Positions 5,697 to 39,500 of a stretch of 64,000 nt of DNA are shown one piece after another. The notes beneath the pieces were generated by a model. That model saw only the letters and a program-made list of their open reading frames with translations, did no database searches and was not told the origin of the DNA. Source of the DNA: an uncultured Candidatus Saccharibacteria bacterium (GTDB taxonomy: Bacteria; Patescibacteriota; Saccharimonadia; CAILAD01; GCA-016700035); the NCBI GenBank assembly GCA_964646575.1, contig CAZYFT010000001.1, forward strand, positions 8,118 through 72,117. Reading direction: 5' to 3'. The position numbers and the translations under genes are program-made. The stretch's first letter is position 1; each line of letters opens with the position of its first letter.

Positions 5697-5773
5697 GGGT
5701 CCTTAGCTCAGTTGGCTAGAGCGCTTCCTTGACGTGGAAGAGGTCAGAGGTTCGAGTCCCCTAGGACCCACCA
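5697..5773 (+). tRNA. tRNA-Val (anticodon GAC), with encoded CCA.
   Basis: Cloverleaf folded by hand: acceptor gggtcct/aggaccc, D-stem gctc/gagc, anticodon stem cttcc/ggaag with loop ttGACgt, T-loop ttcgagt, discriminator A, CCA. Confidence 0.85.
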
Positions 5774-5982: not shown

Positions 5983-7785
5983 ATGAGCAAAGATATTCAT
6001 GCAATGCGACATAGTGCTGCACATGTATTGGCAGCTGCACTGCAAAAGCTCTATCCAGGAGCAAAGTTTGGGGTTGGTCCGGTTATTGAGTACGGCTTCT
6101 ATTATGATGTCGCTTTCCAAGAAGCAATTTCAGATAAGGATCTGAAGAAAATTCAAAAGGAGATGCGCTCAATTGTGAAGCGTAATCTGCCAATTGAACG
6201 TGAGGAATGGCCGATTGAGCGGGCAATAGACTACTTTGCAAATAATGATCAGCCTTTCAAAGTCGAGCTATTGCGAGATTTACAACAGCATGGCACAACA
6301 AGCATAAAAAATATAGACTCTTCTGACTTAGGAATTGATGACACTGATGAAAAAATAACAACGGTTTCAGTATATAAAATCGGTGACTTTGTAGATTTAT
6401 GCCGTGGCCCTCATGTAGTAAGCACAGGAGAAGTAGGCGCATTTGAGCTAACTCGTCTGGCCGGAGCGTATTGGCGTGGTGATGAGGCGAGAGATCAATT
6501 GCAGCGTGTGTATGGCATTGCGTTTGAGTCTGAAGAGGAGCTCGAAAAGCACAAGGCTATGTTAGAGCTTGCTAAAGAGCGAGACCACCGCAAGTTGGGG
6601 CGAGAGCTAGATCTGTTTACTTTTTCAGAATTGGTAGGCCCTGGCTTACCACTATGGACTCCGAGAGGCACAGTAATTCGCAATGAGTTAGATGCGTTTA
6701 TACAAGAGTTGCGGGCGGAGTATGGCTTTGAAGAGGTGACGATTCCGCATATCACAAAGAAAGAACTCTATATGCGGAGCGGGCATTGGGATAAGTTTGA
6801 AGATGAGCTATTTAAGATTACTTCGCGTGATGGGCATGAGTTTGCTTTAAAGCCAATGAATTGTCCGCATCACACCCAGATTTTTGATTCTCGACCACGG
6901 AGCTATCGAGAGATGCCGGTACGTTATCGCGAGACAACCATGGTGTATCGCGATGAACAAAGTGGTGAGCTGCATGGGCTTTCGCGTGTTCGGTCAATTA
7001 CACAGGATGATGCTCACACGTTTTGTCGACCAAGTCAGGTAGAAGATGAAGTAATGAACGTTTGGAATGTGATTGAGCAATATTGGAAGGCATTTGGAGT
7101 AAGCTTGCGAGTGCGTCTATCTACGCATGATCCGAAGAATATGAAGGGTTATCTCGGGACTGAAGAGCAGTGGGAGTCGGCGGTTGCACAATTGCAATCA
7201 GTAATTGTGCGTCAGGGCGTAGAGTTTGAACTTGGAGAAGGTGAGGCGGCTTTCTACGGACCCAAGATCGACTTTATAGGTTCGGATGCGCTCGGTAGAG
7301 AGTTTCAAGCGTCAACTGTTCAGCTAGACTTTAATATGCCAGAACGTTTTGATTTGGCGTGTATTGATGAGAGTGGAGTTCGCGAGACTGTTGTGATGAT
7401 TCACTGCGCCATCGCTGGCTCGGTCGAGCGTAGTATTGTCTTGCTCCTCGAACATTTTGGAGGTAATTTCCCTGTTTGGCTTGCTCCACAACAAGTAGCG
7501 GTTCTGCCAATATCCGAGAAATTTATAAAATATGCTGATAAAATTACAACAGTATTGAAAGAGCAGGGTGTGAGAGTCGATGTGAGTGCTGAGAACGAAT
7601 CGCTAGGCAAGCGTATACGGTCGGCAGAAGTGAGAAAAATACCATATACGCTCATTGTCGGAGAGAAAGAAGTGGCTGACGAGACGGTGGCTGTACGAAG
7701 ATTTGGTGAGGGTGATTTGGGAGCCATGAAAGCAGATGAGTTTACAGAAAAAATCACCAAAGAAATTCACAACCGCAGTCTCTAG
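5983..7785 (+). CDS. thrS: Threonyl-tRNA synthetase (class II). It lacks the N-terminal TGS domain but retains the N2 editing-type domain.
   Basis: Motifs include HSAAHVLAAA, DHRKLGRELDLF, MNCPHHTQIF, TQDDAHTFC and GPKIDF. Anticodon-binding C-terminus. Confidence 0.9.
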   Translation: MSKDIHAMRHSAAHVLAAALQKLYPGAKFGVGPVIEYGFYYDVAFQEAISDKDLKKIQKEMRSIVKRNLPIEREEWPIERAIDYFANNDQPFKVELLRDLQQHGTTSIKNIDSSDLGIDDTDEKITTVSVYKIGDFVDLCRGPHVVSTGEVGAFELTRLAGAYWRGDEARDQLQRVYGIAFESEEELEKHKAMLELAKERDHRKLGRELDLFTFSELVGPGLPLWTPRGTVIRNELDAFIQELRAEYGFEEVTIPHITKKELYMRSGHWDKFEDELFKITSRDGHEFALKPMNCPHHTQIFDSRPRSYREMPVRYRETTMVYRDEQSGELHGLSRVRSITQDDAHTFCRPSQVEDEVMNVWNVIEQYWKAFGVSLRVRLSTHDPKNMKGYLGTEEQWESAVAQLQSVIVRQGVEFELGEGEAAFYGPKIDFIGSDALGREFQASTVQLDFNMPERFDLACIDESGVRETVVMIHCAIAGSVERSIVLLLEHFGGNFPVWLAPQQVAVLPISEKFIKYADKITTVLKEQGVRVDVSAENESLGKRIRSAEVRKIPYTLIVGEKEVADETVAVRRFGEGDLGAMKADEFTEKITKEIHNRSL

Positions 7786-8650
7786 TCCGCAAGGTAAGCT
7801 TTTGGCGATTGTCGGACCAACGGCTGCTGGCAAAACGAGTGTTGTATTGAGTTTAGCCGGACAATACCCAATTGAAATTATTTGCGCAGACTCTCGCACG
7901 ATCTATCAAGGAATGGACATTGGTACAGCAAAGCCAACTTTGGAAGAGCAAGCTCAGGTGCCGCACTGGGGTTTAGATCTTGTTAAACCTGGTGAGTCGT
8001 ATTCAGCGGCTCAGTTTGTAAAATATGCCGAGCAGAAAATGCAGGACATATGGGAGAGGGGTAATACTGCCGTGATAGTTGGTGGAAGTGGGATGTATAT
8101 CGATGCCTTGCTTTTTGGCTATAAGTTTCGTTCGCCTGCTGCGCAGCCACAAGATTTTAGCATGATGCCACATAGTGACTTAGTGGCGTTAGCTCAAAGC
8201 CAGTATCCTGACGAGATACGGCATATTGATGTAGAAAATACTAGACGATTAGTGCAGCTATTAGAGAAAGGGCCCGCAAACAGAGCAGATCGTAATGAGC
8301 TAAAATATCAGGTTACAATTATCGGTATTGACCCATCGAAGGACGATCTCCAGATGAAAATTGAGAAACGTACAGATGAAATGTTGAAACAAGGATTTGT
8401 TCAAGAGTGTAAAACACTAGTTAATGTATACGGAAACAGGTGTTCGACACTCCAGACTACGGGTTACTCGGCTGTTGTCAGCTACTTGCAGGGCGAAGCC
8501 GGCTACGAGGATATGCGGCAAAGAATTGTAATAGATACAAGGAGGCTCGCAAAGAAGCAGCGCACATGGTTTCGTCGTAACTCACACATAGAGTGGTCTA
8601 CCGATGAAGAGAAAGCCCTAGTAATTGCAGCCTCCTACTTGGAAGCGTAA
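7736..8650 (+). CDS. miaA: tRNA dimethylallyltransferase. The real start is probably a downstream TTG/ATG after the thrS stop; the ORF-track start overlaps thrS by 50 nt.
   Basis: P-loop LLAIVGPTAAGKTSV plus CADSRTIYQGMDIGTAKP. Typical MiaA length. Confidence 0.85.
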   Translation: MSLQKKSPKKFTTAVSSPQGKLLAIVGPTAAGKTSVVLSLAGQYPIEIICADSRTIYQGMDIGTAKPTLEEQAQVPHWGLDLVKPGESYSAAQFVKYAEQKMQDIWERGNTAVIVGGSGMYIDALLFGYKFRSPAAQPQDFSMMPHSDLVALAQSQYPDEIRHIDVENTRRLVQLLEKGPANRADRNELKYQVTIIGIDPSKDDLQMKIEKRTDEMLKQGFVQECKTLVNVYGNRCSTLQTTGYSAVVSYLQGEAGYEDMRQRIVIDTRRLAKKQRTWFRRNSHIEWSTDEEKALVIAASYLEA

Positions 8651-8661
8651 CAAGGTACAAT

Positions 8662-10020
8662 ATGTATATGAAGCGTTTGCGAAATGCACTAGGGATAACT
8701 GTCGGTAAAACTACCGGCCGCTCCATGAAGTTGCTTGGTCGACATAGTACCGCACTTCCGGGGTTTGTTGCTGAGCTCATAGGAAATCAGCCGTTGGAAC
8801 ACTACATGCGTAAGCGTTCTTACGCAAAGACCATCTTAGTCACTGGAACGAACGGGAAGACCACCACCACCATGCTGATTGCGAGCGTGTTCCGCGAGGT
8901 CGGCTATGAAGTGGTGAATAATGGCTCTGGATCTAACTTAACTCGAGGGGTACTAACAGCGCTACTAGACGACAAGCGTCAGGGCGATGACTCGGTGCTA
9001 CTTCTCGAAGTTGACGAAGCTAGCATGCCAGCAGTTTGTAAAGCTACGAAGCCGGATATTATTGTTGTATCAAATATTTTTCGAGATCAGCTAGATAGAT
9101 ATGGAGAAGTAGATACGACAAGAAAACTACTTGAACAAGCGCTTGGTTTTGCCACGGATGCACACCTCGTACTCTGTGCTGATGATCCGCATGTAGCTCG
9201 ATTGGGGCTAGATGAGGGCCGAGCCGTGAACTACTTTGGCCTCAATGCATCTGGAATAAGTGCCTTGCCACACGACCATGCCAGTGATGTGCCGCTTAGT
9301 CCGGTGACCGGGGCGCCTCTTGTGTACTCGCGCAGATATTTTGGACATGTTGGCGCATATAAGGCTACCGACGGGAGCTTTGCCCGACCAATTCCAGATG
9401 TATCTGTAGAGGCTATATCGCGTGGATCGCAGGCGCAAGTGGTAACGATGAAGTTGCACGGACACGACCAGCCGTTGGTAGTTCGGAGTAGTCTGGTGGG
9501 GACGTATAACACCTATAATTTGGCTGCCGCAGTGACGGTAGCAGTCACTTGTGGGCTCGATATGAAGCAAGTAACAAAAGCTTTACAGCATAAAAATACA
9601 GCCTTTGGTCGCCAAGAGACGGTGCATTTTGAGGGAAAGCGCTGTACGTTTTTGCTTATTAAAAATCCGACTGGCTTTAATCAAGTAATTCAGTCATTCT
9701 TTCAGGCGAGGACTACTAGGCCGGTTTTGATTGTAATTAATGATAATTTTGCAGATGGGAAGGATATATCTTGGCTGTGGGATGCGGCTCTAGAAGACCT
9801 GGCTACAACCGGTCAAATTATTGTGTCGGGGTTGCGAGCTTACGATATGGCATTGCGCCTTGAGTATGCGGGTAAGAAGTGTCGAGTAATAGAAGATCCT
9901 ATTCAAGCTTTACGTACTCTCTCTAAAAGTGATGCCGAAGAAGTTTTGGTATTGCCGACATATACTGCGCTCTTAGAGATGCGCAAAAAGCTCGCCCTCA
10001 AATTGGAGCATAGATTATGA
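8662..10020 (+). CDS. murT: Mur-ligase-family protein MurT (lipid II isoglutaminyl synthase subunit).
   Basis: Mur ligase P-loop ILVTGTNGKTTTT plus a DUF1727-like C-terminal domain. Immediately followed and overlapped by a GatD-type amidotransferase. Confidence 0.8.
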   Translation: MYMKRLRNALGITVGKTTGRSMKLLGRHSTALPGFVAELIGNQPLEHYMRKRSYAKTILVTGTNGKTTTTMLIASVFREVGYEVVNNGSGSNLTRGVLTALLDDKRQGDDSVLLLEVDEASMPAVCKATKPDIIVVSNIFRDQLDRYGEVDTTRKLLEQALGFATDAHLVLCADDPHVARLGLDEGRAVNYFGLNASGISALPHDHASDVPLSPVTGAPLVYSRRYFGHVGAYKATDGSFARPIPDVSVEAISRGSQAQVVTMKLHGHDQPLVVRSSLVGTYNTYNLAAAVTVAVTCGLDMKQVTKALQHKNTAFGRQETVHFEGKRCTFLLIKNPTGFNQVIQSFFQARTTRPVLIVINDNFADGKDISWLWDAALEDLATTGQIIVSGLRAYDMALRLEYAGKKCRVIEDPIQALRTLSKSDAEEVLVLPTYTALLEMRKKLALKLEHRL

Positions 10021-14998: not shown

Positions 14999-15075
14999 CG
15001 GGGTGTGGCGCAGTTGGCTAGCGCGTACGGCTGGGGGCCGTGAGGTCGCAGGTTCGAGTCCTGTCACCCCGACCA
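14999..15075 (+). tRNA. tRNA-Pro (anticodon GGG), with encoded CCA.
   Basis: Hand-folded cloverleaf: acceptor cggggtg/caccccg, anticodon loop ctGGGgg, T-loop ttcgagt, CCA end. Confidence 0.85.
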
Positions 15076-16734: not shown

Positions 16735-17122
16735 AGCAAGTAAGCAGATGATCGCTCCATTTTTGGAGAGGAAAGTCCGAACAGTTCGAGTACAGGATGG
16801 TTGCTAACGGCAACCCGGGGCAACCCGAGGGAAAGTGCCACAGAGACAATACCGCCAGGCGTTAAGCCTGGTAAGGGTGAAAAGAGGGCGGTAAGAGCGC
16901 CCAGCTTGTGCTGGTGACAGCATGAGGAGGTAAACCCCATCTGCTGCAAGGCTTATGGATCCCGACAATGTCAAAGCGTGCTCGCTTTTCCTTGTATGAG
17001 GAGGGATATGTCGCATGATTGTGGGGGAACCACAACACTGTGTTCCACAGAGATAGATGATCATCACCTTTTTAGACAGGCTAAAAGGGGACAGAATTCG
17101 GCTTATCGCTTGCTTGCCCGCA
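16735..17122 (+). ncRNA. rnpB: RNase P RNA (bacterial type A).
   Basis: Conserved GAGGAAAGTCCG, taagggtgaaaagagggcggtaagagcgccc (P10-P12 region) and a 3' ACAGAAttCGGCTTATCG. P1 pairs agcaagtaagc (5') with gcttgcttgc (3'). The ORFs predicted on both strands here are spurious. Confidence 0.8.
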
Positions 17123-30481: not shown

Positions 30482-30540
30482 ACCCTAAATCCTACCATAT
30501 TTCTCCAGAAAGCTTGAGCATTTACGCATTGTTAGTAAAA

Positions 30541-30549
30541 TGGTATAAT
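30541..30549 (+). promoter_or_regulatory. Extended -10 element (TGgTATAAT) positioned about 10 nt upstream of the tmRNA 5' end.
   Basis: Sequence tggtataatg at 30541-30550. A weak -35 (tttacg) sits 17 nt upstream. Confidence 0.45.
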
Positions 30550-30559
30550 GCATGTTCTT

Positions 30560-30962
30560 GGGGCTGACTATTAGCTTCGACAGGGTGATCATTGACAAGC
30601 ATAACTTGCAGGCCGGGTTGAGATGAACGTTATCCGTCTCAAACCAATAAGTGTAAACTCACTTGCAAGCAAGGTACGCAGTGCTTTTTCAGCACCCGCT
30701 CTTGCACCAGCTTTCGCCTAAACCCGAAAGCCATCCAGTAAGCTTACGCCAACTGTAGCTTCGTCGGGTGTTATACTTTTGTTGGCTGCCCATGATGTGT
30801 TCTGCGTCCGCAGCATGGTAAGTTACCAGATTGCAGGAAAGGCTCGGGGATTGGTTCGCTTGTTCTCCCGTCGTCTTTCTCAAAACACGTAAGCGAACTA
30901 AGCTTGTAGACAGTATGCGAGTCACACACTGGACGAGGGTGCGATTCCCTCCAGCTCCACCA
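30560..30962 (+). ncRNA. ssrA: tmRNA (SsrA), one-piece. Predicted tag ORF gca...gcc taa, encoding (ASKVRSAFS)APALAPAFA*.
   Basis: 5' GGGGCTGActattagcTTCGACAGGGtgAT matches the canonical tmRNA 5' end. 3' GGACGAGGGTGCGATTCCCTCCAGCTCCACCA is the tRNA-like T-arm plus acceptor. 5'/3' acceptor pairing ggggctg/cagctcc. Confidence 0.8.
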
Positions 30963-31069
30963 TAAAGAGATCAGCGATTTTTGTTGGTCTTTTTATTTTT
31001 GGTCAAGATTTATTGATATGCCTTCTTGGGGGAAACCAGATATACTAGAAGGTAACAAAGGAGGCGATC

Positions 31070-31924
31070 ATGACAATGCCAATCGATTTAGTCCTGGTTC
31101 GTCACGGCCAGTCAGAGCAGAATAAAGCCTTAAAAGCAGTGAGGAGTGGCAATCAGTCGCTTATTACTCACGGGTTTTTACATACCCCAGATTCTCAATT
31201 TCGTTTAAGTGCGCTTGGGAGAGAGCAGGCTCAGATAACCGGCAGATGGTTACAGGAGAAAGGATTGGGCTTTTTTGATAGGCGCTACGTTTCAGATTAT
31301 GCTCGTGCCAAAGAAACAGCAGCGCTCCTGGATTTGGAGGGTCCAAATTGGTATGTTGAGCCTACTTTGCGTGAGCGTGAATGGGGTGTTCTTGATTCGT
31401 TAAGCTGGGAAGAGCGTGAAGAAAAGATGATTGTTGAATCACGCAAAAAGGAAACGGACCCGTTCTATTGGGTTCCACCTAACGGTGAATCTATCGCTCA
31501 AATGACGGTGCGCCTGCGAGGACTTCTCGACACGCTCCACCGCGAGTGCAGTGATAAGCGGGTTATTGTAGTGTGTCATGGAGAAGTTATGTGGGGTATG
31601 CGTTTTATGCTTGAGAGGATGTCGACTACGAAGTGGATACAATTGGAGCGTTCGCAAGAACCAGGAGTAAGAATATATAATTGCCAAGTACTGCATTATA
31701 CCCGGCGTAATCCCGAAACGGGGAGCTCTCGGCTCACTTTGATTGGATGCGCTCAGAGTGCCCTCAACAGCCAGAGAATTGTGGTCCTGGGTGGCAGCAA
31801 GTCGCGCGCGAGACGTTTTCGAATGAAGAACTCTTGCTGCAAGCTGAAAAATCTCCACATTTGTTTGAGTAAATTCATTATCATGGTGACTCGAAAGAGC
31901 TACTTTTTTATATATAATGCTTAA
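31070..31924 (+). CDS. Histidine phosphatase superfamily protein (phosphoglycerate-mutase-like). The last ~40 codons are low-complexity and may be read-through.
   Basis: LVLVRHGQSEQN (RHG motif) and a downstream catalytic His (VVCHGEVM). Confidence 0.7.
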   Translation: MTMPIDLVLVRHGQSEQNKALKAVRSGNQSLITHGFLHTPDSQFRLSALGREQAQITGRWLQEKGLGFFDRRYVSDYARAKETAALLDLEGPNWYVEPTLREREWGVLDSLSWEEREEKMIVESRKKETDPFYWVPPNGESIAQMTVRLRGLLDTLHRECSDKRVIVVCHGEVMWGMRFMLERMSTTKWIQLERSQEPGVRIYNCQVLHYTRRNPETGSSRLTLIGCAQSALNSQRIVVLGGSKSRARRFRMKNSCCKLKNLHICLSKFIIMVTRKSYFFIYNA

Positions 31925-31926
31925 GG

Positions 31927-31955
31927 TTGTAAAAAACGCATCATAATTGTATAAA
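31927..31955 (+). promoter_or_regulatory. Sigma70-like promoter (TTGTAA-N17-TATAAA) for the downstream small-protein operon.
   Basis: Read from the sequence: ttgtaa aaaacgcatcataattg tataaa, about 25 nt before the 31947 ATG. Confidence 0.4.
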
Positions 31956-32351
31956 TATACTGTTTCGTACCTCGAAGAAAGTAGAATCATGAGCTGTATT
32001 ACTCTCGATATTTGGAAGAACCACGAGGGGACTGGTAGATGGAAGCTCGTTTGCTCTGAAGAGCTATTCGTACCAGATCTACTCCAGAAAACTGATTACA
32101 CCGCTGATGAGTTAGCAAGTTTGGAGAAGGCGCTTTTCCCAGCTGGCAAGCAGATTGTTCTCGCTCTCGGGTTGTTTTATGGCGTCACAACCCACTTCAA
32201 CGTGGATGAGCCATGTGCCGTCGAATTTTCTGTCCCACCAGACGTTGATCCAGCCCTAGTCGAGGTGTCATATCGACAACGTATCGACAGCCTTTCGGTT
32301 TCGATGGTATTCGAATCAGGAAAGACACTTGTAGGAAGTTATCGAGACTGA
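31947..32351 (+). CDS. Small hypothetical protein, paralog A.
   Basis: Shares GRWKLV.., HFNVDEPCAVEFSVPPDVDPALVEV and IDSLSVSMVFE blocks with the protein at 32753. Confidence 0.45.
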   Translation: MYKYTVSYLEESRIMSCITLDIWKNHEGTGRWKLVCSEELFVPDLLQKTDYTADELASLEKALFPAGKQIVLALGLFYGVTTHFNVDEPCAVEFSVPPDVDPALVEVSYRQRIDSLSVSMVFESGKTLVGSYRD

Positions 32352-32360
32352 GGAGGCACC

Positions 32361-32639
32361 ATGTCCTATGCATATCCAATCCTCGATGGATGTACGCGCC
32401 ATGAGAATGGTGAATTCACCCACAATGCATGCGGTACCAAGATCATGACTGCCACTGTGCGTCATTCAGTACATGATGGTCCATTTCCGCTTTCTGGTAG
32501 CGGAGATGTAGAGCTTGAACTTGTGCCGTATTGTCCTACTTGCGAGGAAAAGCCGAGCGAGCATGGCGCCCCGGTGGGCCGACGACAAGTGGATGTTGAC
32601 GAAGCGGCAATTCTGCGACGGATGCGCGAACAGCGCTAA
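32361..32639 (+). CDS. Small Cys/His-rich (zinc-ribbon-like) protein.
   Basis: DGCTRHENGEFTHNAC ... CPTCEE metal-ligand spacing. 92 aa. Confidence 0.4.
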   Translation: MSYAYPILDGCTRHENGEFTHNACGTKIMTATVRHSVHDGPFPLSGSGDVELELVPYCPTCEEKPSEHGAPVGRRQVDVDEAAILRRMREQR

Positions 32640-32752
32640 TTTCTACAGGCAGCTTTATTGAGCTTGCCTGTTTTTTACTTACTGAATTATGTTATGCGAA
32701 ATCTGCTCATGGTTGACTATGGCCTTTTTGAGAGTAAATACTGGGAGGGTTA

Positions 32753-33181
32753 TTGTACCTTTTCCGAGGAGTAGCTATGGAGCAGGCGACCCTTACGGAG
32801 CCGGCAAGACTCATAGTCGAACCCGACTTTACTAGAGATGGTGGTTGGAGGTTGACGTTTTCCAAGCCACTAGTTAACGCGGACAAATGGGCCGCACGCC
32901 GAGCGAGAAAGTTGAGTGCCTGTGAAGTTCAGGAGATGGCGCGTGGAGTACATTTTACCTACGACGGTGGCTTGATATTGCGCACCTTCCTCAATGAGGG
33001 GTGTCGTATCGAGGTGCTGGTTGATCCTGACGCTCCCAACATGTTGTTGATCGAGCCGACCGAAGAGGAGATAGACAGTATCAGCCTTGAAATTAGTTTT
33101 CGTTGCTGCATCAGTATGATTTCTGATGCTTTTAAGTTTGAGCGCCTGCTCGAAGTTGAGGTGCGCTATATCGAGCTGTAG
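32753..33181 (+). CDS. Small hypothetical protein, paralog A'.
   Basis: DGGWRLTFS, HFTYDGG...GCRIEVLVDPDAPNMLLIEP and IDSISLEISFR blocks align with the 31947 protein. Confidence 0.45.
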   Translation: MYLFRGVAMEQATLTEPARLIVEPDFTRDGGWRLTFSKPLVNADKWAARRARKLSACEVQEMARGVHFTYDGGLILRTFLNEGCRIEVLVDPDAPNMLLIEPTEEEIDSISLEISFRCCISMISDAFKFERLLEVEVRYIEL

Positions 33182-33363
33182 CAGGTCGATTCTCACGGGT
33201 AGTCCTATGTATATAGGGCTACTTTTTACTAGTCTGGCGCTTAGCTTCGGTGATGTAGTCGTAGAACTAAACTCAACTTTACTAGACGAAAATCTTCTTC
33301 TGGTAGAAGCTTATGGTGGACGAAGCGCGCATGGTCTTCTCATAATCAGTAATAGGAGAGAAC

Positions 33364-34077
33364 ATGATGGGTTTAGACATCAATATTCACAGCGCTCAGA
33401 CGAGCATCTTGCGAGAGTTGCTATTTCACCCGCAGGCGAACTATGCGGCGCTGCAAAAGCCAACTGGCTTAACTAGTGATCATTTTAATTTTCATATTTC
33501 TCGGTTGGTTGAGCTGGGTCTAGTGAAGAAGACGGCTCGTGGTATGTATTCGCTCACGATTCAGGGTAAGGAGTATGCGAATCGACTGGATACCGATAAT
33601 AATACGGTGGAGCGGCAGCCAAAGACGGCGGTTTTACTGGCGATTGAGCGTGATGTGGGCGGTAAGCGCCAGTGGGTGTTTCAGCAACGCTTAAAGAACC
33701 CGTATTTTGGCTTTTGGGGATTGCCGAGTGGCAAGATTCGTTGGGGTGAAACGGTTGTGCAAACGGCCGAACGGGAAAGCCTGGAGGAAACTGGGTTGAG
33801 TGCGGATTGGCGAGTGGCTGGCGTGTATCACGAGATAGTCGTGCAGAAGGAAACAGGCGAGATGCTGGAAGATAAAATATTCTTTGTGGTGCATGGCACG
33901 AATCCGAAAGGCGACTTACAGGAGGATTTTGAGGGCGGACATAATGAGTGGCTCGTTCGGGAGAGGGCGAATGTGCAAGAAAAGATATTTGATAGCTTTA
34001 ATATCGAGCTCGATATGGTAGACAGTGGTGAGTGGCTGGTAGAGCGGACAACGAGCTATAGCCAGGATGTATTTTAA
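33364..34077 (+). CDS. N-terminal wHTH fused to a NUDIX hydrolase domain.
   Basis: Nudix box GKIRWGETVVQTAERESLEETGL (GX5EX7REUXEEXGU). N-terminal HTH ILRELLFHPQANYAALQKPTGLTSDHFNFHISRLVELGLV. Confidence 0.7.
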   Translation: MMGLDINIHSAQTSILRELLFHPQANYAALQKPTGLTSDHFNFHISRLVELGLVKKTARGMYSLTIQGKEYANRLDTDNNTVERQPKTAVLLAIERDVGGKRQWVFQQRLKNPYFGFWGLPSGKIRWGETVVQTAERESLEETGLSADWRVAGVYHEIVVQKETGEMLEDKIFFVVHGTNPKGDLQEDFEGGHNEWLVRERANVQEKIFDSFNIELDMVDSGEWLVERTTSYSQDVF

Positions 34078-34158
34078 GCTTGCATTCCTGGGGTGAGGGG
34101 CTACAATGGCACAATATAGTTTGTACCTTGTAGCTTCTCACTCCTTGGAGGTCTGACG

Positions 34159-34479
34159 ATGTCGACTGTTGTAGGTTTCTTGATGATTGGTGTGTCGGTG
34201 ACCTGTGCATTTGTGATATTCGCTGCTCTGGATGAGAGGCCTCCGCCATCTGAGAGCGTAGCCCAGAAGCTTAGGGGTGGCTTAGTAGGAGCAGCTTTGC
34301 TGTTAGTGCCGGGGCTAGCCTTACTTGAGAGCCTTTCGCTCATCATGGCAACAGTAGGAGTCTTGTTGTTGATATGGTCTTCACGACGTGAAGATAAGAT
34401 CACTTCATTCGTAGCTGTGGGGTTCATGGGGTTCTCGCTAGCAATTCAATACAGCTGGGTCTTTCAGTCTTCCTCTTAG
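34159..34479 (+). CDS. Small membrane protein (3 TM), hypothetical.
   Basis: Hydrophobic segments throughout. No motif. Confidence 0.3.
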   Translation: MSTVVGFLMIGVSVTCAFVIFAALDERPPPSESVAQKLRGGLVGAALLLVPGLALLESLSLIMATVGVLLLIWSSRREDKITSFVAVGFMGFSLAIQYSWVFQSSS

Positions 34480-34489
34480 TTGAGGAGGG

Positions 34490-36244
34490 CTAATTTGTAA
34501 TTATGACAGTCTTTTCACGGGCCATACTTTGAATACCGGTATTGGTAATAATGAAGTTCTGCAGTATCCAGGTTCCAGTGGAGAGGCTGGCAGTCGAAAT
34601 ATCTTGCCGTAGGCTCCGCGTGCCACTTGGAGTGAGCCCACTAGCAATAGTGATTGATTGATTTGTAGATGTATTTATAGCTCGTGTTGTGCAGGTTACA
34701 TCAACAAGTATAGATGTACAGGTAGAGTTAAATTTATCAAACTCATAATCTGTGAGTTCTGTATCGAGTTCGCTAAGAGATATGCGTGAGGCAGAGAGTG
34801 GTGAACCTATAGACGTTGTAGCAGATACATCATTAAGTGCTCCATAGGTGTTGAGAAGGCCATGCCCGTAGAGATTCGTGAAGTTTATATTGTTCATGGG
34901 TGCAAGTTTAGTGGCAGTTCCCGTTAGAGCGACACTGACTTGAGTGGGTGTAAGCGTGGGGTTTTGCGAAAGCAGTAGCGCTGCAGCGCCAGCAACAAGA
35001 GGGCTAGAGAATGATGTTCCGTTCAAGCCACAGGCGTTAAGGCCGGATTGTGCGGCGTTAGTCCATACTGTTGAGCACAACCCAGCGCCAGGAGCAACTA
35101 GATCTAAATTATTTCCATAATTGGAGAAACTGGCAATTGAATTGTCGGCATTCGTGGCCCCAACTGCAATTACATCTGGATACCGAGCGGGGTAGGAAAT
35201 ACAGTTACAGCCATCGTTCCCAGATGCAGCCACCACGACTACTCCATTTTGTGTTGCGTAATCTATTTGTTCGGACACCAAAGGGTCGTCAGCTTCTGCG
35301 CCTAAGCTCATATTGATGATACTCGCACCTTGGTCTACTGCATAACGTATACCGAGTGCTACAGATATTGTGTAGCCATCTCCATAATCATCAAGAGCTT
35401 GAATGGGCAGGATTTTAGCACCCCAGCTCATACCAGCGCCGCTAGCGTTGTTGTTGGCTTGTGCGGCAATTAGGCTTGATACAGTCGTGGCATGGTATGC
35501 ACCACTGGCGGTAGGGGCGGTTTGGCCGGCACTTACATTGTTGGTGTCGTCGCTAAAATTCCAGCCAAGGTAATTATCTATATAGCCATCGTTATCATCG
35601 TCGAGATTATTACAGCGTTTATCAACAGATAGGGAACGACTGGTACAGTTGGGGGCTGGGCCTTCGGTGGTGGTTGTACCAACTTCAGCAGCGTTTTCTG
35701 CCCACTTATTCGTTAAATCTGTTACTTGCAGGCCAAATCCGGTGTCTATCACTGCTATCGTTACGTCAGAATTGCCAGATTGATGGTTCCAAGCTGGAAG
35801 GGTATTGGTGTTTGTGAGGTGCCATTGGTTTGAAGCGAGGGGGTCAGTTGGAGTGAGAAAAGCAGAATAGCGCTGGTTAATAAAAGTTTTTACCCCTGAA
35901 GTCGCAATAATATTTTGGGCACGCACACCATACACACCCAAGGCTTCAATATATTTTAAATCAGATAGCTCAAGATTGTTTGCAGTGAGGAATTCTTCCT
36001 GCGCTAATTCATCTTGAAAGCGGAGGATGTATTGTGTGTTCTTAGACTCTATGTGGGCCGAATTTCCATCAAGAGATTGGGTGTTTTCTAGGCTTACAGG
36101 TTGTAAGCTTTCTTTAGCAGGGGCATTGGGTGGATTCGGCAGAGGGTCCCCCGGAGCATGAACTGGAGTAGCGAACAGTATAAGGAGTAATCCAGCGCTA
36201 ATCCCTGCCGTTGAGAGTTTTGCGTTTCGCAGGTGTAATTTCAT
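34490..36244 (-). CDS. Secreted subtilisin-like serine protease (peptidase S8) with a signal peptide and a C-terminal extension.
   Basis: Catalytic triad motifs VIDTGF (Asp), HATTVSSLIAA (His) and GTSFSSPLVAGAAALL (Ser). N-terminal signal peptide LLLILFATPVHA. Confidence 0.85.
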   Translation of the reverse strand: MKLHLRNAKLSTAGISAGLLLILFATPVHAPGDPLPNPPNAPAKESLQPVSLENTQSLDGNSAHIESKNTQYILRFQDELAQEEFLTANNLELSDLKYIEALGVYGVRAQNIIATSGVKTFINQRYSAFLTPTDPLASNQWHLTNTNTLPAWNHQSGNSDVTIAVIDTGFGLQVTDLTNKWAENAAEVGTTTTEGPAPNCTSRSLSVDKRCNNLDDDNDGYIDNYLGWNFSDDTNNVSAGQTAPTASGAYHATTVSSLIAAQANNNASGAGMSWGAKILPIQALDDYGDGYTISVALGIRYAVDQGASIINMSLGAEADDPLVSEQIDYATQNGVVVVAASGNDGCNCISYPARYPDVIAVGATNADNSIASFSNYGNNLDLVAPGAGLCSTVWTNAAQSGLNACGLNGTSFSSPLVAGAAALLLSQNPTLTPTQVSVALTGTATKLAPMNNINFTNLYGHGLLNTYGALNDVSATTSIGSPLSASRISLSELDTELTDYEFDKFNSTCTSILVDVTCTTRAINTSTNQSITIASGLTPSGTRSLRQDISTASLSTGTWILQNFIITNTGIQSMAREKTVIITN

Positions 36245-36262
36245 GCCTGCAATGTCGTTAAG

Positions 36263-36300
36263 GTGATCATTACGACCCCACAGACGTAATGATCACCAGC
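36263..36300. promoter_or_regulatory. Perfect 13-bp inverted repeat (GGTGATCATTACG-N10-CGTAATGATCACC) immediately upstream of the S8 protease start. Candidate operator.
   Basis: Read from the sequence. No T-run follows it, so an operator is more likely than a terminator. Confidence 0.3.
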
Positions 36301-36585
36301 TACTTTATATTGCTGTATGAATGAATGATTTTGTACTGAAGACTGGAAGCAAATAGGTCTTACCAGTATTTTTTTATTGTTAAGTTTAGTGTTTTTGTGT
36401 AGCATTTGATGTTTACGTTTAAGCTTGTTGTATGTATTGCTCTCTACTTTATATACATATGACTGCAGAGACAATAGTTTTTATGCTTAAATGAGTTTTT
36501 TTGACGCAAAAAAGTATTCATTTTGTTCTTCTTGGTATGATATAGTGATTGTGAGTTACATAAGCGTTTCATACGCAAAAAAGTC

Positions 36586-39500
36586 ATGAAAGAATCCAAA
36601 AAGCAAATCCCGCAGAAATCTATTCGTTCAGTCGATGCAGTTCGTCAAGCGGCTGTTTCTGTGCGTAAAGACTCACAGTCGTATGCTCCTATCCAGCACA
36701 TGACGAGGCTCGGTGCAGTTTTTATTGCTGTAAGGTGCTTAGTGCGGCGTGCACCCGAAAAGCTTGAGATATTTAAGGACAGAATAAGGCTAAGCAGCCA
36801 GCGCATAGCTAGCAAGTTGGTTTCTAAGCTTCCAAAGGTATCTGTTCCCCGAATACAAACGTCTAACAGGTTAAAAAGTGTTGTAGCCAGTACATCATTA
36901 GCGCTTATGATGGTTCTGATGTTCTTCAATTTGGGAATTGGTAACATTGCACGAGCGTTCGAGGATCTTAACCAGTCTGATTGGTCTGGTGGGGTTGGCG
37001 CCAGTCCAGTTGATCAGTACAGTGCCGGCGAAAATGTTGTAACCACTACACCAAATAGAATAGAGCTTGGCGTCGATCAACAGAACCAGTGGTGTAATAC
37101 TGCGTTATGTGATAACCAGTGGCAGTATCGGAAATCAGTATGGTTACCACAATATTCAGTTGATCTTACTGGACGCAGCTCAGTTCAACTTGAGTTTGAT
37201 TTGGAATACACGGCAGCAATGAAGTCTGACTTTAGTGATGTCCGCTTTGTAAGCGCCAATGACAGTCAAGATATACCATATGTAATCACAAGCAAGACTA
37301 ATGGTGGGAGCGCTCACTTTATTGTTAAGGTGCCGGTAGTAAATGGCGATTCACCCGAGATGCTACGAGTGTATTACGGAAATGCTAATGCCAGCTCAGT
37401 TGAAAATAAGGCAGGTACTCTCGATATATGGGATGAGTTTGATCAAGGGCGGAGCTGCCCTGCCGGCAATCCAATAGGCTGTACTCCCAATACAGCCGTT
37501 GTAAATATGGGTGAATTGGAAATCAATTCCTCCGATTATTATCCGGCGAGTAATTATGTTCTCTCGAAGGGAATTGATAGGATTTTTCAAATCGATATAA
37601 AGCCACGGGATGCATTTGGCTGTGATTACAACAACTATGTGTCTTACATGTCACTAGGGAAAAATAATTGGTGGCAAGATCCTTCTGGTACTGTCAGTAT
37701 GTATACTTACGGGCGTGGTGGTGGTCAGGGGTGTTCTACTGCGAAAAGCCAACATCAACTCGCAATTATCCAGTCCAGCTGGTTCAGGGATAGTCAAAAT
37801 TATGGTGGTGGGGGATGGTTAGATAATGACCAAATACTTAGGCATACTACTGAAGACACCGAGTGGTTGACTATCCGCACAGTGATGAAGGCTGCTGGAG
37901 GGTATGACGTTTATACGAGCACCAATGGGGGTGCTAGTTTTCGTTTAGTTGGCCAAAATATAAGCTCAAAAGAAACTTTCTTGACCGACTTTGATAGATG
38001 GTATATCTCAACGCAGAGCTCGATGCCGCTGAGTGTGAAAAATATTCGCAGCTATAGCTACGTACCGAACGCACAGCCTGTATCTGTAGGTGTGCAAGAA
38101 AAGTTAGGGGGCTATACAGGTTACTTAGATTCAGTAGAATACGATCTTGGTCAGAATGGCGTATATGTTGGTCAAATTACAGCAGAGACGGTCGGTTCGG
38201 GAAAAATTAGTTTTCGTGTTGTTGGGTCTTCTGTGGAGGGTGGGACAAGTCAGTTTGGTGACGCGCGCCATTGTAAGATTATAGAGAACGGTGGGGATGC
38301 AGGGGCGAGTAACTGCATGGAGGCTAATTCGAGGTACGTAAAATATTTAGCAATCATTCAGGATGATGATGGGAATAAGGATTTTGCCGTAACAAATATT
38401 CGTCTTCAATATGGTTTTGATGATCAATCGCCGAATGCAGCGGGAGGGATAAATGTACGTAGAGAGGGTGCAAGTGGACCGCTTGTTACCACTGGCTGGA
38501 TTAATACTTCACCGTACTTTGGCTGGAGTGCAGCTAGCGATAATCAGGGTGGCAGTGGTGTGGTTGGGTATTGTCTCTATTTTGGGAGCGATGAATCTGC
38601 AGATCTAGCAACCACGCAGGGCATACTTCCTGTTTTGAGCCCTCTGGAAACCAATGACCGTTGTCAGTATGCGGTCTCCGGTACCTCACTCAACATGTCG
38701 CAGCTTGATCTGCAGGCGCAATTAAGTAGTGACACAGTCTACTACCTAAAGATACGAAGTATTGATAAAGTTGGGAATTTGTCTAATGAGTCCGTGTTAA
38801 CAATTGGCTATGATACCGAAGAGCCTGAGTTTAATACCTTGGCAACAGGACCAAATGGCGCTGTGAATTCACCGCTTGCTAATATTAACTGGCTAACGAC
38901 ACCGCCGGCAGGTGCGGATGATAGTGGGGGATCTGGTATCGCGGGTGTTAGATATTGTGTTAATTATTTTGGTAGTGTACTTCCGGAGTGTAACTTAGAA
39001 ACTGGAGGTGGCGAAGATACCCCGGACTGGATATGGTTTGGGGCTTCGGGCAATCCGGGCGGACTATATGATTTATCGGATACCATTCCATTTACAGATG
39101 GAGGATTTCAGATATCCACGAACGCACTTTCTCATTTGACGAATGAAGGCATAAATTATGCCTATGTCGTATTGCTTGATAGAGCTGGTAATGTTGGCGG
39201 TGGTGGCGTGGGTTATATTAATACCACCCAACAGACTGCTTCACCACCCCGAAATCTAGTAGTATCTCCGCCTATTAGCAGTCAGAACCAGTTCTCTTTT
39301 AGCTGGGAGGCGCCTTCCAGCCTGACCGGTCCAGCTAGTGAGGTAGATTACTGCTGGACTGTAAACGCTCCAATATTGCAGGACGCTAGCAATTGTAATT
39401 GGACTGGCAAGGGAATTACCCAGCTGGCGAATGGTGCTTATGCGACGCAGCAGGGGGAGAATACGATGTATGTTATGGCGAAAGATCAATCGCAGAACTT

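Follow-up and report, generated by a model that had tools for sequence, protein, structure and literature searches.

The 64,000-nucleotide (nt) stretch of DNA analyzed here (the window), from an uncultured Candidatus Saccharibacteria bacterium, carries a group of three small genes about 1 kb downstream of ssrA, the transfer-messenger RNA (tmRNA) gene. The group lies between a His_Phos_1 histidine-phosphatase gene and a gene encoding a protein with a winged helix-turn-helix (wHTH) and a Nudix domain. We refer to the three small genes as A, Zn and B. A and B encode acidic proteins, and Zn, which lies between them, encodes a Cys/His-rich protein with a predicted zinc ribbon. An earlier note on this DNA had described an accessory islet in which A and B are paralogs, and had likened these genes, together with the wHTH-Nudix gene, to a toxin-antitoxin module or to an NAD/ADP-ribose-linked defense module. 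The islet and the paralogy withstood our analysis, and the four-gene module did not. The best explanation overall, which we hold with middling confidence, is that two autonomous units make up a shuffled and dispensable accessory islet, and that there is no four-gene system.

Open reading frames exist where the earlier note had placed them, with the starts of A and B revised. The mechanically listed TTG starts at 31947 (A) and 32753 (B) are probably not used. The true starts are likely to be ATG 31989, giving a protein of 120 amino acids (aa), and ATG 32777, giving one of 134 aa, because the gene calls in relatives are 120 aa and 130-134 aa long. Motifs resembling ribosome-binding sites (GGAGG/GAGGAG) just upstream support the ATG starts at 32361 (Zn) and 32777 (B). 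In orthologue comparisons, the ratio of nonsynonymous to synonymous divergence (dN/dS) was 0.07-0.15 for A, 0.05-0.15 for Zn and 0.11 for B (compared with B of relative L006); synonymous divergence (dS) was saturated between B and B', the second, deeply diverged allele of B. A, Zn and B are real genes under purifying selection.

Table 1. Features of the islet and its flanks (window coordinates)
Feature	Coordinates	Strand	Basis or remark
tmRNA (ssrA) gene	30560..30962	+	Rfam RF00023, 103 bits; flanking context kept in relatives
His_Phos_1 histidine-phosphatase gene	31070..31873	+	Pfam PF00300, E=4e-28; conserved upstream flank
Promoter-like TTGTAA-N17-TATAAA of the A-Zn unit	31927..31955	+	Read directly from the sequence
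Gene A, 120 aa	31989..32351	+	Acidic (isoelectric point, pI, 4.6) cytoplasmic protein
Zn-ribbon gene, 92 aa	32361..32639	+	Family alignments; GGAGG ahead of the start
Intrinsic terminator of the A-Zn unit, hairpin then U-run	32645..32677	+	Minimum free energy (MFE) -15.6 kcal/mol, z=-4.7
Promoter-like sites and conserved leader of gene B	32713..32776	+	Promoter scan and alignment of window, L006 and L008
Gene B, 134 aa, acidic distant paralog of A	32777..33181	+	Two deeply diverged alleles, B and B'
Terminator-like hairpin and U-run 3' of B	33197..33226	+	12-bp stem, MFE -15.9 kcal/mol, z=-2.1
wHTH-Nudix gene	33364..34077	+	Pfam NUDIX; conserved downstream flank

The dedicated promoter that the earlier note had read ahead of the set is present (Table 1); it is absent from our promoter scan because the scan accepts only -10 hexamers with T in the sixth position. 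From the promoter through the leader to the start codon of A, the sequence is nearly invariant in four lineages (window, L001, L006 and L008), and the promoter moves with A, standing upstream of it even in the rearranged relative L006, where A comes after B. The leader of B is conserved in the window, L006 and L008, and moves with B in L006. The A-Zn spacer is 9 nt long and contains GGAGG, and Zn sits between A and A's terminator, an arrangement which suggests that A and Zn are co-transcribed and probably translationally coupled. Because terminators follow both Zn and B, and because each leader travels with its own gene, the stretch appears to consist of two autonomous units, promoter-A-Zn-terminator and promoter-B-terminator, followed by a separately transcribed Nudix gene.

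Comparison with close relatives bore out the description of the stretch as an accessory islet, inasmuch as it varies among three architectures: His_Phos-A-Nudix in L001-L004, His_Phos-A-Zn-B'-Nudix in L005, L008-L011 and L017, and His_Phos-B-A-Zn-Nudix in L006 and L007. At the DNA level, breakpoints were located at 32351/33267 and 32794/33267. In L001, 62 bp stand in place of window positions 32352-33266, and the junction of the A-only architecture reads TGA-AATGCGCGAACA followed by the Zn terminator, where AATGCGCGAACA is a 12-nt remnant of Zn comprising its last codons; this architecture therefore arose by deletion of the Zn gene body. Window positions 32795-33266 could not be aligned with L005, L008 or L017, whose flanks are 84-99% identical to those of the window, and B and B' share 51-56% aa identity. 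The dS of A was about 0.5 in the same genome pair in which synonymous sites of B/B' were saturated, which indicates an old allele brought in by recombination rather than local acceleration. Between L006 and the window, A-Zn is 70% identical, His_Phos 91% and B 88%. The comparisons show a recombination-shuffled site holding autonomous small-gene cassettes, at which Zn is dispensable.

According to the earlier note, a quartet that is not conserved as a unit elsewhere would speak against a module, and this is largely what the gene-neighborhood check revealed: the quartet is kept solely in a few contigs of the same genus, and there with a deeply divergent B allele. Judging from this distribution, the four genes do not form a unit. 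A shift in GC content or codon usage relative to the flanking genes, which the earlier note had proposed to look for, was only small. Composition was 0.479 for A, 0.530 for Zn and 0.511 for B, against 0.468 +/- 0.024 over 31 genes of the window. The idea that the islet is compositionally foreign is unsupported; only the GC of Zn and the GC at third codon positions (GC3) of B are somewhat high, and the GC3 of the core Nudix gene is as high as that of B.

Copies of a 17-nt imperfect direct repeat, AACCCGACTTTACTAGA and AACTCAACTTTACTAGA (15/17 identical), lie at 32820-32836 and 33270-33286, near both borders of the segment replaced in the B' relatives (32795-33266). They could be a recombination microhomology or a relic of another B-like 5' end, and repeats of such size also arise by chance.

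The wHTH-Nudix protein follows the islet as the earlier note had said: it matched Pfam NUDIX at 47.3 bits (cut-off, 21.1), with weak wHTH matches in its N-terminal part. The Nudix box GKIRWGETVVQTAERESLEETG, as read from the sequence, is intact and conforms to Gx5Ex7REUxEExGU. An intact Nudix box fused to a wHTH, in a gene adjacent to A, Zn and B on one strand, would suit a four-gene Nudix-linked defense or NAD/ADP-ribose signaling module in which the wHTH-Nudix protein regulates or cooperates with the other three. A Nudix gene beside the Zn homologue of L033 and another 1.7 kb away from that of L013 lend this idea a weak, post-hoc hint. However, terminators separate the Nudix gene from the cassettes, and its product is 94-95% identical across all architectures (dN/dS 0.02-0.03), whatever the islet contains. 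Nudix homologues with 52-67% identity occur in other Saccharimonadia contigs, in unrelated neighborhoods that hold none of A, B, Zn and His_Phos, and L026, which is syntenic with L013, has no Nudix gene. Searches of PADLOC-DB 2.0 yielded no family for A, Zn or B; for the flanking protein they yielded weak, generic matches at the level of Nudix or HTH domains, with E of 2e-4 or worse. With the architectures so varied, and with Nudix, A and Zn found apart from one another, the neighborhood data largely refute a Nudix-linked module, to which we give hardly any credence. Because its homologues occur in different neighborhoods without A, B or Zn, the wHTH-Nudix gene is a core gene of the lineage that borders the site and lies outside the variable cassettes.

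Like NrtR-type regulators, the flanking gene encodes a Nudix domain together with a winged helix in a single chain. NrtR is an ADP-ribose-responsive repressor with an N-terminal Nudix domain and a C-terminal wHTH; in the flanking protein, by contrast, the order is reversed, with the wHTH at the N terminus. NCBIfam NF050029 (printed 'NtrR') matched the protein at 11.5 bits against a cut-off of 400, far short of an assignment to NrtR. In L005, a 90%-identical relative, the wHTH-Nudix gene (7470-8184) is called in two pieces of 78 aa and 177 aa, which suggests a frameshift or an assembly error. As for Nudix genes near Zn, the one in L033 (4305-4802; Paceibacterota) lies directly upstream of the Zn homologue, and the one in L013 (4251-4709; a Patescibacteria contig) lies upstream of it as well; including the window, such proximity was seen in 3 of about 21 lineages, which is a weak hint.

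We then compared A and B, whose paralogy the earlier note had asserted. A and B aligned by BLASTP at E=2e-5 (23% identity, 105 aa), and the observed score was reached in 1 of 3000 shuffles (Gumbel p = 2e-5). A profile built only from A-like proteins, including the distant P0023-P0026, matched B' at E=5e-7 (26.5 bits, residues 1-118) and window B at E=3e-4. Alignment of enriched A and B profiles by hhalign gave 93.7% probability (E=1.8e-7, 114 columns), as against just 22% with shallow profiles. A full-length profile match, by which the A/B small-protein family is defined in this analysis, was obtained, and homology of A and B as distant paralogs is supported by these comparisons.

Three shared motif blocks had been put forward in the earlier note. 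The N-terminal block G(R/G)W(K/R)L is the sole block common to both alignment registers. In the C-terminal half, the profile alignments are shifted by about 10 residues relative to the BLAST/MAFFT alignment, setting 'THFNVDEP' of A against 'VLVDPDAP' of B, and 'YRQRIDSLSVSMVF' of A against 'FRCCISMISDAFKF' of B. Both proteins carry quasi-repeats in the region of shifted register, and the other two blocks, 'C.(V/I)E..V.PD..P' and 'IDS(L/I)S..', probably match by coincidence within these quasi-repeats.

Scans of Pfam, NCBIfam, PHROGs and PADLOC gave no usable match for A or B and none for Zn, in line with the earlier note, which could place A and B in no family that it recognized. The best NCBIfam match of A, NF011963, was sub-threshold (E=0.057, 13.1 bits against a cut-off of 146), and searches of Protein Data Bank (PDB) sequences with A and Zn profiles yielded nothing below E=0.17. 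Homologues of A formed 4 clusters in a search of 5.8 billion proteins, and an A+B profile search of 1.84 billion representatives returned nine proteins, four of them P0023-P0026; the distant A-like proteins found nothing in the JGI metagenomes. As far as these searches reach, the A family appears to be small and known only from Saccharimonadales, and B appears only in this genus. A-like proteins are acidic, with pI of 4.1-4.7.

A-like genes are present, single and stand-alone, in three more distant Saccharimonadales genomes (L046, L048 and L050). Those of L046 and L050 lie in other contexts, without Zn, B or Nudix. In L048, 130 nt separate the tmRNA gene from the A-like gene that follows it (33% identical), and a glycosyltransferase cluster lies upstream. 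This A-like gene is monocistronic, with its own promoter-like site and terminator, and its neighborhood is that of the window minus His_Phos. ARAGORN detected tmRNA in L006, L008 and L048. This shared neighborhood shows A to be an old, long-standing resident of the chromosomal site. We also considered an island integrated at the tmRNA gene, which was rejected: the genes called within 6 kb included an integrase in none of the relatives, and no repeat of the tmRNA 3' end, as an attachment (att) repeat would be, was present in 30500-36600. The position of A near the tmRNA gene looks like conserved synteny, and probably not like an integration site. About 1 kb from the A-like gene of L048 lies a gene for an 862-aa protein (6316-8904) with precomputed, unconfirmed Pfam matches of the major-vault-protein type (MVP_shoulder as an unmarked match; Vault_3 and Band_7 weak).

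These distant genes also bear on another explanation, in which A and B are immunity-type proteins, orphaned from a polymorphic toxin system and forming an array with divergent alleles directed against the toxins of competitors. Small, acidic, cytoplasmic proteins present as paralogous copies, with deeply divergent B alleles exchanged by recombination, would fit such an array. However, neither a toxin gene nor a toxin-domain remnant was found within 6 kb in any architecture, and the distant A-like genes are single and stand among housekeeping genes; we regard this explanation as quite improbable.

The 92-aa Cys/His-rich protein that the earlier note had read between A and B is real, and its knuckle residues C24, C58 and C61 are invariant in the family. 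The knuckles are H21-x2-C24 (C-x2-C in most homologues) and C58-P-x-C61, and the residues invariant in the family are C24, D39, G40, P43, S45, G46, G48, P56, Y57, C58, P59, C61 and P65, giving the motif C-x2-C...HDGPFPLSGSG...PYCPxCEEKP. Structure prediction, which the earlier note had proposed as a check, was of use for Zn. Its AlphaFold2 (AF2) model had a predicted local distance difference test score (pLDDT) of 79, with 89-95 for residue blocks 11-30 and 51-70 and 65-81 between them. Beta-strands stand on both sides of both knuckles in this model, so that Zn is predicted to have the two CxxC-type knuckles on beta-hairpins of a zinc-ribbon fold, and to bind metal. In a fold search with the model, neither PDB (best E=1.4) nor BFVD (best E=0.55) held a match.

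Homologues of Zn fell into 14 protein clusters. A scan with strict patterns, using one genome per species, found 19 loci in 185,579 species genomes, all of them in Patescibacteria or DPANN (Pace-, Woese- and Nanoarchaeota). Zn is also present on two IMG/VR contigs, one of which carries a terminase, a RecT-like protein and an exonuclease as well. In L012, a phage-like contig with 62% GC, Zn directly follows a C5-methylase, with a Cas4-like exonuclease, Rad52 and a GH25 lysin nearby, and in a JGI contig it adjoins a PIF1-type helicase. Homologues stand alone, without an A-like gene, in 23 distant loci; no A-like gene adjoins Zn in any locus outside this genus, and no neighbor is conserved across loci. 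A conserved upstream partner was rejected: the same-strand gene upstream of Zn differs in every locus, and the upstream ORFs of nine loci are unrelated to one another and to A/B. From its distribution, Zn is a dispersed stand-alone gene type that phages also carry. The family is covered by no curated family, and in these searches its members were confined to Patescibacteria, to DPANN archaea and to replication/recombination modules of phages; the published literature held nothing relevant on the Zn motif or on a Saccharibacteria tmRNA island. Beside a phage-like Zn homologue, a 79-aa neighbor in L014 (1592-1831) bears a precomputed PF26761 (Acb5) label, which is unconfirmed, as our own Pfam hmmscan gave no match at E<=0.01.

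These data allow A-Zn to be compared with type II toxin-antitoxin operons. As in such operons, the two genes are small, tightly spaced and apparently co-transcribed from their own promoter to their own terminator, and the first product is acidic; moreover, Zn was lost while A stayed, which is the decay order expected of a toxin. A would then be the antitoxin, Zn the toxin, and A-only loci orphan antitoxins. Unlike the partners in such operons, however, A and Zn each occur alone in many genomes: A is found without Zn in L001-L004 and in the three distant genomes L046, L048 and L050, and several of the 23 loci with Zn alone have a housekeeping gene or an opposite-strand gene upstream. No known toxin, antitoxin or DNA-binding domain was detected in A or Zn by Pfam, NCBIfam or PADLOC at E<=1 (save NF011963) or by fold searches, and Zn, with pI 5.7, is not basic. 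We therefore consider a toxin-antitoxin pair very improbable.

We also compared Zn with Lar/RalR, a small zinc-ribbon protein encoded downstream of recET in the E. coli Rac prophage. Similarly, Zn can lie just downstream of a phage exonuclease/annealase module, as in L015 (exonuclease-RecT-...-Zn) and L012 (exonuclease-Rad52-...-methylase-Zn). The invariant HDGPFPLSGSG hairpin of Zn, by contrast, has no counterpart in RalR. A relationship between Zn and RalR/Lar was rejected, with an hhalign profile-sequence probability of 0.8% and no match to Pfam Lar_restr_allev. The units as a whole resemble the autonomous accessory cassettes of phages known as morons: A-Zn, B and the A-like unit of L048 each have a promoter-like element, a leader and an intrinsic terminator, and the units are inserted between unrelated genes with a presence and order that vary among close strains. 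They differ from morons in standing outside a prophage, with no integrase or att repeat found, and in the long residence of the A-like gene at this chromosomal site.

What the proteins do can be proposed with low certainty. Because A and B share no conserved residue of a catalytic type, because the proteins are small and acidic, and because Zn has little beyond a zinc ribbon and its invariant Gly-rich hairpin, A, B and Zn may all act as non-enzymatic binding proteins. Because the phage copies lie in recombination/replication modules (RecT, Rad52, exonuclease, C5-methylase and PIF1), Zn might bind DNA or a DNA-transaction protein, and A (and B) could modulate or partner Zn in this genus. The islet would then be a dispensable, recombination-shuffled accessory modulator, most plausibly at the interface with phages or mobile elements. 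Both the binding activity and the phage-related role are inferred with low certainty. A more specific proposal seems unlikely to us, namely that Zn is the founding member of an undescribed family restricted to the ultra-small symbionts of both domains (Patescibacteria and DPANN archaea) and to phages, that it is a small protein inhibiting an enzyme of DNA replication, recombination or modification or serving such an enzyme as an adaptor, that it is coupled in this genus to A as a lineage-specific acidic partner, that balancing selection maintains B as ancient alternative alleles, and that the whole is a new two-component module of phage-host conflict.

Several observations weigh against a mobile, phage-linked islet. 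In cellular genomes, Zn sits among housekeeping genes (thermosome, IF2, UvrB, Pol III delta, UDG and Alr) in loci whose GC content spans 26 to 56%, and this range and context are as compatible with a cellular gene of long residence as with a mobile gene. The position of A near ssrA has been kept over deep divergence, which argues against recent mobility. A tblastn search with Zn of 50,697 deposited phage genomes found none, scans of viral contigs for the A and B families found none either, and PADLOC and PHROGs were empty for all three proteins. The AF2 model of A, with a pLDDT of 54.8, is too poor for fold-based claims. In addition, the loci were retrieved via A, B, Zn or Nudix, so that a site without any cassette could be missed.

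The strongest rival holds that A/B and Zn are lineage-specific housekeeping or regulatory small proteins with an ordinary role in the cells of ultra-small symbionts (for example, as nucleic-acid-binding proteins or adaptors), and that the variation is neutral gene flux in fast-evolving genomes, unrelated to phages or conflict. Synteny of the A-like gene with both ssrA and the glycosyltransferase cluster across a divergence of about 33% identity, purifying selection on A, Zn and B, the cellular surroundings of Zn in Patescibacteria and DPANN, and the lack of defense-family matches are all in keeping with it. However, Zn has been cleanly deleted in one lineage, in which B is absent too, so neither is essential; the Zn family was detected in just 19 of the 185,579 species genomes under the strict patterns, and is carried by phages too; and an ancient B allele inside young flanks is not readily given by neutral drift. 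We rank an ordinary cellular role with neutral flux as nearly as likely as the shuffled accessory islet, although taken by itself it remains somewhat doubtful. The alternative offered in the earlier note, a lineage-specific regulatory unit, stands nearer to the evidence in its first half, and nothing shows a regulatory role.

Two autonomous units in a shuffled, dispensable islet thus remain our preferred explanation, and the islet itself, though new, is an ordinary case of orphan genes varying among strains. The main practical outcome is that the Nudix-linked defense and toxin-antitoxin readings should be dropped. The value lies more in the pieces than in the quartet. Of these, the undescribed zinc-ribbon family with its almost invariant Gly-rich hairpin is of most interest; small proteins common to both ultra-small symbiont radiations and to their viruses are candidate host-takeover or genome-maintenance factors. 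To our knowledge, hardly any gene of these organisms has had its function tested. The site also offers, in a reduced Saccharibacteria genome, a clean, small-scale case in which cassettes were shuffled, a gene was deleted and an allele was replaced by an ancient one.

Some further observations concern the flanks. Compared with L005, L006 and L008, the window's His_Phos_1 gene has a 1-nt deletion in an A-run near 31717 ('CCCGA-AACGGGG'). The deletion shifts the frame of the last ~50 codons, and the mechanical ORF therefore runs to 31924; a different frame, which ends at 31873, still encodes the conserved C-terminus (...GELSAHFDWMRSECPQQPENCGPGWQQ...LFE*). The cause is either an error in the assembly or a genuine truncation. 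On the other side of the islet, the wHTH-Nudix gene is followed on the + strand by a gene for a 106-aa membrane protein and then, on the opposite strand, by an S8 peptidase gene. A very stable long hairpin (34089-34145) lies between the Nudix and membrane-protein genes; the region 34075-34160 has an MFE of -38.9 kcal/mol (z=-5.4) and no clear U-run. Elsewhere, the window holds a class A RNase P RNA (16736-17121) and two ordinary tRNA genes (5697-5770 and 14999-15072).

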